From Escherichia coli (GTDB lineage: Bacteria > Pseudomonadota > Gammaproteobacteria > Enterobacterales > Enterobacteriaceae), in NCBI RefSeq assembly GCF_036507355.1, contig NZ_AP027877.1: a DNA stretch of 64,000 bases. One strand, given 5' to 3'. The notes beneath the pieces were generated by a model. The model was given only the letters and a program-made list of their open reading frames with translations. It was not told the DNA's origin and did not search any database. Below are positions 3,358 through 6,210 of this stretch, in pieces. Both the position numbers and the translations under genes were made by a program. Each line of letters opens with the position of its first letter. The first letter of the stretch is position 1.

Positions 3358-3736
3358 GTTTTGTAACCTGTTGTTGATTACATCCGATCTCACCGCGTGG
3401 GGCATGGATGGGGCAAACTCACTCATTATCTGGTTTAAAATGGATACCTGATCCTGAACGTTTTCTGCCATCCACGATCCGTATACACGATAAACCCTCT
3501 GATTATCAGAGTGTCTCATTTGACACATCACCACGTCGGATGTTGTTACGACCACAGACGCAACAGTAACCTCTGGATAATTTAATCTTTGTTGATGTTT
3601 TTATTCATATTCCGGGCTATGGATATGAGCGATTTTTGATAGTGGTAATTTTATTGTGTTTTAGAATGCGCCCTGAATCGCCACGGGTTTAACAGACACC
3701 TCAGAGTCATTTAAGATGGCTTAAAGAGAGGTGCCC

Positions 3737-4015
3737 ATGAGCGGTAAGCGTTATCCCGAAGAGTTTAAAATTGAAGCAGTCAAACAGGTTGTTGATCGCG
3801 GTTATTCTGTTGCCAGCGTTGCAACACGTCTCGATATCACCACCCACAGCCTTTACGCCTGGATAAAGAAGTACGGTCCGGATTCTTCCGCTAATAAAGA
3901 ACAGTCAGATGCTCAGGCCGAGATCCGCCGTCTCCAGAAAGAGCTGAAGCGGGTTACCGACGAACGGGACATATTAAAAAAAGCCGCGGCGTACTTCGCA
4001 AAGCTGTCCGACTGA
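3737..4015 (+). CDS. IS3-family transposase OrfA (HTH DNA-binding part)
   Basis: MSGKRYPEEFKIEAVKQVV...DILKKAAAYFAK; ATG at 3737 after AGAGAG; C-terminal KKAAAYFAK is typical of IS3 OrfA. Confidence 0.8.
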   Translation: MSGKRYPEEFKIEAVKQVVDRGYSVASVATRLDITTHSLYAWIKKYGPDSSANKEQSDAQAEIRRLQKELKRVTDERDILKKAAAYFAKLSD

Positions 4016-4884
4016 GGTACGCCTTTATCCGTGACAACACCTGTTGCTGGCCTGTTCGCCTGCTCTGTCGGGTGCTGGATGTTCATCCCAGTGGTTTTTA
4101 CGCCTGGCTTCAGCAGCCGCATTCACAACGCCATCAGGCAGACCTGAGGCTGACAGGGCAGATTAAACAGTTCTGGCTGGAATCGGGATGCGTCTATGGT
4201 TATCGCAAAATCCATCTGGATCTGCGGGACAGCGGGCAACAGTGCGGAGTGAACAGAGTCTGGCGACTGATGAAACGTGTCGGGATAAAGGCTCAGGTCG
4301 GATACCGGAGCCCGCGGGCACGTAAAGGCGAGGCCAGTATCGTGTCGCCCAACAGGCTCCAGCGACAGTTCAATCCGGATGCTCCGGATAAGCGTTGGGT
4401 AACGGACATAACCTACATCAGGACCCACGAAGGCTGGCTGTATCTTGCCGTGGTTGTTGATCTGTTCTCACGCAAAATTATCGGCTGGTCCATGCAATCC
4501 CGGATGACAAAGGACATTGTCCTGAACGCACTGCTGATGGCTGTATGGCGCCGTAATCCCCAAAAACAGGTGCTGGTTCATTCGGATCAGGGCAGTCAGT
4601 ACACAAGCCATGAGTGGCAGTCGTTCCTGAAATCACACGGCCTGGATGGCAGCATGAGCCGTCGCGGTAACTGCCATGATAATGCGGTTGCAGAAAGCTT
4701 TTTCCAGTTGTTGAAACGCGAACGGATAAAGAAAAAGATCTACGGAACGCGGGAAGAAGCCCGCAGCGATATTTTTGATTACATCGAAATGTTTTATAAC
4801 AGTAAGCGTCGGCATGGTTCCAGCGATCAGATGTCACCGACAGAATATGAAAACCAGTATTATCAACGGCTCGGAAGTGTCTAG
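3982..4884 (+). CDS. IS3-family transposase OrfB (DDE catalytic part), reached by -1 frameshift at A AAA AAG (3976-3983); standalone ORF 4072-4884
   Basis: Frame 1 is open from 3982 (SRGVLRKAVRLRYAFI...) into the listed ORF, which has a DDE-type core (WVTDITYI...HSDQGSQYTS). Confidence 0.8.
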   Translation, partial: SRGVLRKAVRLRYAFIRDNTCCWPVRLLCRVLDVHPSGFYAWLQQPHSQRHQADLRLTGQIKQFWLESGCVYGYRKIHLDLRDSGQQCGVNRVWRLMKRVGIKAQVGYRSPRARKGEASIVSPNRLQRQFNPDAPDKRWVTDITYIRTHEGWLYLAVVVDLFSRKIIGWSMQSRMTKDIVLNALLMAVWRRNPQKQVLVHSDQGSQYTSHEWQSFLKSHGLDGSMSRRGNCHDNAVAESFFQLLKRERIKKKIYGTREEARSDIFDYIEMFYNSKRRHGSSDQMSPTEYENQYYQRLGSV

Positions 4885-5139
4885 ATTATCCGTGGCGATT
4901 CATACTTTTTATAGAATGCAATCCTATTAAAGAGGCATTTTTAATGCCATGGACTTTGACAGACATTACCTATGGAATATCGCAGAGAAAATATATTGTT
5001 ACGAATCCCGATGATTATGATAAATATTCTTACATGGTTAAAAGGATAGTAATAGATGGTCATAATTAAATAATTTATTTATGTGCTGAATTTACAATCC
5101 AAGTGCAACAAAAAAAGAAGTACTCATCAACTAGAATAT

Positions 5140-6210
5140 AATTTTGTTTCCACACAAAAACCACTTCCAAATGATGAGTACTTCCTACCGACATCTTACA
5201 ATAAACGAGCGAGAAAAGATAATGATTTTACTCGCACAGGGCAAAAAACAAGCAGAAATTGCCAAAGCACTGGGACGTAGCTCCAGCACCATTTCTCGCG
5301 AGCTGAAACGACACGCTCTAGAAAGCTACAGTGCAACGAACGCACAAAACAGCTATTTGAAGCATCGTCAAAATAGCAAAGCACAGCGCAAATTAGAGCA
5401 GCCTGAATATTTCAATTTGGTGCAAGAAAAGTTTCTGACAGAAAACTGGTCGCCCGAACAAATCAGCGCACGATTAAAATTGGAAAAATCTGAATTATCC
5501 ATTAGTTATTCAACCATTTATCGTGGTATTTATTCAGGGTTGTTTGATATAGGCGAACGCAAAGCCAGTCGCAAACTGCGCCACAAAGGCAAAACACGGC
5601 ATACAAAAAATCATCATGAAAAACGTGGCAAAATTCAGATATCCAACCATTTGAACGACCGTCCCATTTCGGCGCAAAATCGCAGTCGCTTTGGACATTG
5701 GGAAGCCGATACCGTACTGGGTAAAGCGGGTGGAGCTTGTTTGCTGACGCTGACGGAACGCAAAAGTCGTTTTGAGTTGGTGAAGAAAATTCCTGCCAAA
5801 AAAGCCGAAGCAGTCCAAAAAGCCATGATTGAATTGCTGGATTCACATATATTGCGGTCAATTACGCCAGACCGTGGTAAAGAATTTGCCCAACATCGTT
5901 TGGTAACAGAAGCACTGGGTGTAGAATTTTACTTCCCCGAGCCGCATCAACCGTGGACACGGGGAACGAATGAAAATACAAATGGGTTACTTCGTGAATA
6001 CTTTCCGAAGCACCAAGACATCAATCAGTGGAGCGAAGTTGATATTCAACAGGTGATCAATAAACTGAATTTACGACCACGTAAATGTTTAGGTTGGAAA
6101 ACACCTTATGAAGTTTACTTCAAAAAATCGTTGCACTTGGTTTGACAATTCAAGGTAATTAATTAGGCGTAATTGTGTCACTGGAATAGAGGTTTCTTGT
6201 GGCGCATGTA
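5140..6210 (+). mobile_element. IS30-family insertion sequence (boundaries approximate)
   Basis: AT-rich block with an IS30-type transposase; candidate imperfect terminal inverted repeats near 5141-5170 and 6174-6211, aligned by eye only. Confidence 0.5.
5171..6145 (+). CDS. IS30-family DDE transposase
   Basis: N-terminal HTH (IAKALGRSSSTISRELKRH), then HWEADTV, TPDRGKEF and RGTNENTNGLLREYFPK motifs characteristic of IS30-family transposases; start taken at MMSTSY. Confidence 0.85.
   Translation: MMSTSYRHLTINEREKIMILLAQGKKQAEIAKALGRSSSTISRELKRHALESYSATNAQNSYLKHRQNSKAQRKLEQPEYFNLVQEKFLTENWSPEQISARLKLEKSELSISYSTIYRGIYSGLFDIGERKASRKLRHKGKTRHTKNHHEKRGKIQISNHLNDRPISAQNRSRFGHWEADTVLGKAGGACLLTLTERKSRFELVKKIPAKKAEAVQKAMIELLDSHILRSITPDRGKEFAQHRLVTEALGVEFYFPEPHQPWTRGTNENTNGLLREYFPKHQDINQWSEVDIQQVINKLNLRPRKCLGWKTPYEVYFKKSLHLV

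Follow-up and report, generated by a model that had tools for sequence, protein, structure and literature searches.

An ISEhe3-like element and ISApl1 in the variable fliE–yedL interval of Escherichia coli

The 64,000-nucleotide stretch of Escherichia coli DNA analysed here (from contig NZ_AP027877.1; hereafter the window) opens in flagellar region III, with fliG and fliF on the minus strand and fliE on the plus strand (3043–3357), and carries two insertion sequences (ISs) between fliE and yedL. The first is a complete ISEhe3-like element of the IS3 family, IS51 group (3674–4902, plus strand, 1229 bp), which lacks a target-site duplication. The second is a complete ISApl1 of the IS30 family (5085–6154, plus strand, 1070 bp). 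Each is present once in the window. The right-hand boundary gene is an intact yedL (6296–6775, minus strand), which encodes a GNAT acetyltransferase and converges on the gene remnant lying between the ISs; it is followed by yedK, yedF and yedE, and the gene order around the interval agrees with that of annotated E. coli chromosomes. A first-pass annotation had described two unrelated elements of the IS3 and IS30 families, and this is borne out by the NCBIfam models NF033516 (337.8 bits on the OrfB part, cut-off 160) and NF033563 (309 bits on the ISApl1 transposase, cut-off 80). Neither element is truncated. Our comparison collection consisted of 5,426 complete E. coli genomes, none of which covers at least 80% of 3360–6300, that is, the whole arrangement; the strain of origin is therefore not among them.

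The ISEhe3-like element is full-length. Its left (3674–3686, TGAATCGCCACGG) and right (4890–4902, CCGTGGCGATTCA) terminal inverted repeats, both given on the plus strand, are perfect over 13 bp, as annotated initially; they form the outer part (13/13) of imperfect 38-nt arms (3674–3711 and 4865–4902) that match at 74%. The length falls within the 1.2–1.55 kb of the IS3 family and the ends are 5′-TG…CA-3′. As is characteristic of the family, orfA and orfB lie in 0/−1 phase and are joined by a slippery heptamer. orfA (3737–4015, plus strand, 92 aa) encodes a helix-turn-helix/leucine-zipper-type N-terminal transposase part, and the orfB frame, in −1 phase relative to orfA, is open over 3982–4884. 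After a −1 shift the predicted OrfAB transposase (3737–4884, plus strand) has 382 aa and no internal stop, with its DDE residues within WVTDITY, HSDQGSQY and DNAVAES. One substitution is private to the window copy when it is compared with four others (T at 4647, changing E to D).

The −1 slippery run annotated at 3976–3983 (AAAAAAAG) is indeed there, but its motif is not A AAA AAG: the orfA-frame codons are TTA AAA AAA GCC, so that the in-phase heptamer is A AAA AAA (3976–3982, plus strand), followed by G at 3983. This assignment follows from the sequence, the frame arithmetic and the open −1 frame, and the Prokaryotic Genome Annotation Pipeline (PGAP) labels the copies in strains G4/9, 06-00048 and DEC5B ‘IS3 family transposase, programmed frameshift’. 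The sequence is also predicted to fold into a hairpin (3988–4023, plus strand; 11-bp stem) 5 nt 3′ of the slippery run. The region 3984–4050 has a minimum free energy of −20.6 kcal/mol (z-score −1.4 versus shuffled sequence), and the hairpin is a possible stimulator of frameshifting.

RefSeq/PGAP and NCBIfam give this element only as ‘IS3 family transposase’, and our name for it comes from the published annotation of another plasmid. Two copies of ISEhe3 have been described on the IncC plasmid pT5282-Ct2 (MF344574), one of them tied to a 24.5-kb backbone deletion (PMC6872532). That plasmid record contains exactly two IS3-family transposase genes, at 97,293–98,440 and 142,257–143,404, which share one protein accession. 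The element carrying the first of these differs from the window element by 14 mismatches over 1229 bp with no gaps (98.9% identity). This match, together with the agreement between the two-copy count and the published description, suggests the name ISEhe3. By ISfinder convention, isoforms have at least 95% nucleotide identity to the reference. ISEhe3, first described on the Pantoea agglomerans pPATH plasmid, is an IS3-family, IS51-group element with TG ends and 3–4 bp direct repeats (ISfinder AF327445; PMC10425158). The window element resembles it in length, in its TG…CA ends, in the orfA/orfB −1 frameshift and in the 3-bp duplication found at sister copies, and differs from it in the E to D change and the lack of a duplication. 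We therefore refer to it as ISEhe3-like. Full-length, gap-free copies are found in G4/9 and 06-00048 (99.9% identity, one base different in each) and in DEC5B (98.0%), and 178 genomes of the collection (about 3%) have full-length copies. The element also matches 2,740 plasmid records, 702 of them near full length, from Escherichia, Klebsiella, Enterobacter, Citrobacter, Salmonella and Pantoea.

Copies of the ISEhe3-like element in other genomes are interrupted time and again at internal position 313/314, which corresponds to window 3986/3987 and lies 3 nt after the A7G slippery run. The copy in strain F404 (L008 3315–4535) has an IS30 at this point, flanked by a 2-bp GC duplication. Matches in two pieces, together spanning about 2.45 kb and including an IS30 transposase, occur at different loci in eight or more other E. 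coli records, and many plasmid matches begin or stop at position 313. This pattern suggests that the ISEhe3-like element contains a hot-spot sequence for IS30 or, alternatively, that a composite of one IS inside the other is mobile. In the window copy this point is uninterrupted.

The DNA on either side of the ISEhe3-like element is native to the locus. The stretch 3′ of fliE (3358–3673) comprises an intG-like integrase remnant (about 3380–3520, minus strand, assigned from PGAP labels of homologous DNA) and the upstream region of a leucine-rich repeat (LRR) effector-family gene. It is collinear with locus L004 of strain 33F4 (3701–4016; 7 mismatches in 316) and with L003 of DEC5B, and PGAP calls the homologue of the remnant stretch ‘integrase, incomplete’ in DEC5B, 06-00048 and many others. 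A Pfam search with the 92-aa minus-strand open reading frame (ORF) at 3277–3555, in the region of this remnant, gave no match. On the other side, the spacer between the two ISs had been annotated as about 240 bp of unclear origin; it is 182 bp long (4903–5084, 27% GC) and consists of the tail of the LRR gene (167 nt) plus 15 bp of intergenic DNA. The tail (4903–5069, plus strand) is the 3′ remnant of an LRR/DUF5503 gene of the espR3/espR4/yedN type, containing the last 55 codons and the stop TAA (5067–5069).

The whole spacer is identical (182/182) to 33F4 L004 5001–5182, the tail of the gene for a 372-aa LRR protein (WP_069897581.1) that has an N-terminal DUF5503 domain (183 bits) and weak leucine-rich-repeat matches. 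The remnant in the window lacks this family-defining combination of N-terminal DUF5503 and leucine-rich repeats, its 54-aa product has no match in Pfam, and the corresponding piece in G4/9 is annotated ‘leucine-rich repeat domain-containing protein, missing N-terminus’. As judged from its sequence, it is a remnant and not a functional member of the family. PGAP names the O55/O157 homologues type III secretion system effector LRR proteins EspR3/EspR4 and those of K-12 derivatives DUF5503 protein; the DUF5503/LRR region of K-12 is what we take to be the yedN/yedM pseudogene.

Two features of the ISEhe3-like insertion had been overlooked in the first-pass annotation: it has no target duplication and it adjoins a deletion. 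The left flank reads …gcgccc and the right flank tacttt…, so the 3–4 bp direct repeat of the IS51 group is missing from the window copy, whereas sister copies have 3-bp duplications (GGG in DEC5B, serotype O55:H7; CTT in 06-00048; TCA in F404). Window 3000–3673 is collinear with 33F4 L004 3343–4016 and window 4903–5084 with L004 5001–5182. Because the flanking alignments end there, L004 4017–5000 (984 bp) is missing from the window. The missing DNA comprises 32 bp upstream of the LRR gene and the first 952 of its 1119 nt; position 3673 thus ends 32 bp before the would-be start codon, and the promoter region is lost too. This flanking loss explains the missing duplication, and the structure seen here would be accounted for by insertion at TAC and subsequent loss of the DNA on the left. 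The octamer TAGAATGC occurs in both native flanks, at 3663–3670 (4–11 bp from the left IS end) and 4914–4921 (12–19 bp from the right IS end). As the uninterrupted sequence of 33F4 has the octamer at both places as well, the pair is probably due to chance.

The two junctions of this element differ in their distribution. The right junction (100 bp of IS plus the 182-bp flank) was found, 282/282 identical, only in G4/9, and the left junction in none of the genomes of the collection. In G4/9 (NZ_CP060073, L002 2612–5397) the left IS end adjoins shiA-amn-yeeN, oriented as a deletion would leave it. The gene order fits a large deletion removing fliE–fliR and neighbouring genes, which would predict a non-motile strain; on the K-12 map, the DNA removed would presumably be flagellar region III, some 40 kb. 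That one right junction is combined with two different left flanks points to a single ancestral insertion, with later one-sided losses that were separate or successive. The left flanks of both G4/9 and the window could alternatively have arisen by recombination with other copies, and the data fit both.

One specific form of that alternative is that two direct ISEhe3-like copies separated by about 1 kb (the first 32 bp upstream of the LRR gene, the second at its nt 952) underwent homologous recombination, so that the duplication and the 984 bp were lost together. The left flank of one copy joined to the right flank of the other is exactly the product seen, and the ISEhe3-like insertions at several positions of the interval in other strains make two within one gene plausible. 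Among the genomes matched, however, we found no LRR gene with two copies, the same element lies without a duplication beside the 24.5-kb deletion in pT5282-Ct2, and the loss at the same IS end in G4/9 is much larger. We consider recombination between two copies fairly unlikely. The losses in pT5282-Ct2 and G4/9 point instead to repeated one-sided deletions from the ISEhe3-like element. An intact IS without a duplication beside missing DNA is also what is seen in other IS-linked one-sided deletions, such as the 24.5-kb deletion at ISEhe3 in pT5282-Ct2 and the excision-enhancer-stimulated deletions at IS629, and G4/9 would represent a larger loss from the same end as the 984-bp loss in the window. 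The window locus differs from these cases in that its deletion mechanism is a proposal.

The second element is a complete, full-length ISApl1. The first-pass annotation had rightly placed an IS30-family element in AT-rich DNA, but both of its limits (about 5141–6210) lay too far to the right, by about 56 bp. A search with 5080–6160 retrieved 330 records from 234 E. coli genomes (≥99% identity in 329 records), and the core common to copies with different flanks corresponds to query positions 6–1075, that is, 5085–6154. The matches listed all carry the product name ‘IS30-like element ISApl1 family transposase’, and named copies 99.7–100% identical to the window element over the full length occur in 231 genomes; plasmid matches include Actinobacillus, Glaesserella and Pasteurella as well as mcr-1/pap2 contexts. 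Published descriptions give ISApl1 inverted repeats of 27 bp that differ at six positions, a 2-bp duplication and a bias towards AT-rich targets (PMC5404521), and a length of 1070 bp (bioRxiv 10.1101/2023.06.07.543989). The window element agrees on every point: it has this length and near identity (up to 100%), its left (5085–5111, plus strand) and right (6128–6154, plus strand) inverted repeats are 27 bp long with 6 mismatches between them, and it lies in AT-rich DNA between the two copies of a 2-bp duplication, GT (5083–5084 and 6155–6156). A single intact ORF for the DDE transposase (5222–6145, plus strand) encodes 307 aa from the start MILLAQGKK, in a frame open from 5144.

The empty site of ISApl1 is intact in G4/9 (TTTATTTATGTAATTAATTAGG), whereas the window reads …TTTATGT, then ISApl1, then GTAATTAATT…, and the 42 bp around the target have 14% GC. 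Beyond the element, 6155–6800 is 100% identical to G4/9. No genome of the collection has ISApl1 at this site. ISApl1 originates from Actinobacillus pleuropneumoniae and flanks the mcr-1 transposon Tn6330. Unlike the mcr-1-linked copies, the one described here is a solitary chromosomal copy: a scan of all 64 kb of the window revealed no second ISApl1, no mcr-1 or pap2 and no ORF of the size of MCR-1 (approximately 541 aa).

We considered whether the two elements and the spacer could have been imported together, as a composite transposon or as a fragment of a plasmid or island. They are separated by only 182 bp, each is common on plasmids of enterobacteria, and the spacer has only 27% GC. The spacer is nevertheless native, since it is identical to the corresponding locus of 33F4. 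In G4/9 the IS3-family element and the spacer are present but ISApl1 is not, and its empty site there is perfect. ISApl1 is flanked by a 2-bp duplication of its own, and the families and ends of the two elements are unrelated. A composite or co-imported unit was rejected on these grounds, and we give it next to no chance. An assembly artefact, in which mis-joined repeat contigs misplaced one or both elements, could account for the fact that both the left IS3 junction and the ISApl1 insertion are absent from the entire collection. It is very improbable: ISApl1 lies between exact copies of a 2-bp target whose uninterrupted form is present in G4/9, the junction of the IS3-family element with the LRR gene occurs independently in the finished G4/9 genome, and each element occurs only once in the window.

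Taken together, two independent transposition events have very probably remodelled a variable, dispensable fliE–yedL interval. Elements of this IS3 type produce OrfA and, by −1 frameshifting on A AAA AAA G, the OrfAB DDE transposase, and they move by copy-out/paste-in via a circular intermediate, normally generating a 3-bp duplication. We infer that the ISEhe3-like element came first and would have inserted into the AT-rich LRR gene after nt 952, at TAC. The 984 bp on its left side would then have been lost, either through an IS-promoted adjacent deletion or through recombination with a nearby second copy in the same orientation. Loss of this flank leaves the IS3-family element without a duplication and abutting the integrase-remnant region. 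The more recent event would be a simple insertion of ISApl1, 15 bp 3′ of the LRR stop codon, into the target TTTAT[GT]AATTAA, with duplication of GT. The two elements are intact and can presumably still move. The LRR effector-family gene is the sole gene destroyed, fliE and yedL being unaffected; because most E. coli already lack it or have it only as a pseudogene, no phenotype is expected.

Several points weigh against this account. The unique left junction leaves room for an assembly error at that position. The name ISEhe3 rests on the annotation of pT5282-Ct2 and not on the ISfinder reference AF327445. The hairpin downstream of the slippery site is not significantly stabler than shuffled sequences. 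Any current activity of either element would be deduced from its intact sequence. Finally, the data fit transposase-mediated adjacent deletion and recombination between two copies alike.

The interval itself is very variable. Only 1,514 of the 5,426 genomes keep at least 80% of the fliE–LRR–yedL′ reference; many have no LRR gene and others have two tandem units, so that deletions and duplications make up the main variation. K-12-type genomes hold a DUF5503/LRR pseudogene and an integrase remnant here. The two ISs had been reported to occupy the place of yedN/yedM/intG, which is correct for the fliE–yedL interval but not in the sense of a simple replacement, as 3358–3673 and 4903–5069 persist. 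The window shares with K-12 (intG, yedN/yedM pseudogenes) the position, the integrase remnant and the DUF5503+LRR gene family, and with the espR4–espR3 tandem of O157/O55 the place between fliE and yedL/yedK, the integrase remnant and the same gene family. Like K-12 and 06-00048 it has a single unit, but its LRR gene is cut to the last 167 nt, whereas K-12-type genomes retain the full-length LRR region (90.7% identity). O55/O157 and 33F4 differ from it in having two tandem units. Such a tandem duplication of integrase remnant, LRR gene and partial yedL is found between fliE and yedK in many strains (for example, 33F4 L004 4049–7141, DEC5B L003 1387–5716 and 14EC033 L005 2300–6149), and the 3′ ends of the two LRR paralogues in the tandem units share only about 83% identity.

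The first-pass annotation had also proposed a recurrent insertion hotspot beside flagellar region III, and this is partly supported. At least four independent ISEhe3-like insertions occupy distinct sites: the one shared by the window and G4/9, one inside espR3 in DEC5B, one upstream of the integrase remnant in 06-00048 and one in F404, which is in the opposite orientation, 108 bp into the LRR gene, and is itself split by an IS30. To these can be added an IS1B in the second LRR gene of 14EC033 and the ISApl1 of the window. With full-length copies in 178 of 5,426 genomes, an interval of 2–3.5 kb in a 5-Mb genome would receive well under one insertion by chance, as a rough estimate, and the low GC content of the LRR gene (36%) and of the ISApl1 target suits the AT preference of ISApl1. 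Insertions are nonetheless rare, since in an even sample of 60 of the 5,319 matching genomes only one had an IS in the interval. The target triplets GGG, CTT, TCA and TAC (the last inferred from the right flank in the window and G4/9) share no motif, and the LRR gene is a pseudogene or deleted in most strains, so that more insertions would survive through relaxed selection alone. The IS data are accounted for about as well by a neutral AT-rich sink as by targeting, and we regard a true sequence- or structure-directed hotspot, as opposed to merely tolerant neutral DNA, as somewhat doubtful. Tentatively, and with a rather low probability, the interval may be a preferred landing site of the ISEhe3-like element whose left end repeatedly causes one-sided deletions (984 bp in the window; up to shiA in G4/9).

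Elsewhere in the window, a low-GC island (25428–52806; about 26 kb, 38–47% GC) directly follows the tRNA cluster Gly(gcc)-Cys-Leu(taa). It contains two tyrosine integrases (26760–27989, plus strand; 35437–36564, minus strand), a type I restriction-modification system (hsdM 39779–41302, hsdS 41292–42566, hsdR 43296–46583) in which a yecA-like UPF0149/SEC-C gene separates hsdS from hsdR, and a YgjP-like peptidase. A GmrSD/HEC-06-like nuclease (47361–49232), a PD-(D/E)XK PDC-S26-like protein (49291–50418) and an Mrr-like nuclease (50523–51704) are also present, and native yecA (52141–52806) and tyrP follow. Four further ORFs on the minus strand, encoding 887 aa and an overlapping, operon-like 212 aa (31811–35096), 376 aa (36707–37837) and 411 aa (38240–39475), had no Pfam or PADLOC match at the thresholds used. 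Because they lie between the integrases and the restriction genes, they are candidate defence or mobility genes.

Both elements are already known and catalogued, and the gene destroyed has already decayed in most E. coli, so the general biological weight of the finding is small. As a small but well-resolved case, the locus illustrates how insertion of an IS, combined with a flanking deletion, erases the target duplication, which can mislead annotation that relies on such duplications. The junction of the IS3-family element with the LRR gene provides a clean phylogenetic marker tying the window strain to G4/9. A preference of the ISEhe3-like element for this interval, combined with one-sided deletions, would, if true, be a way in which genes of the locality, and motility, are repeatedly lost. 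The chromosomal ISApl1 marks a lineage that was once in contact with the mcr-1 mobilome, and it offers an active partner for Tn6330-type mobilisation, to the extent that the element is, as we presume, still mobile.

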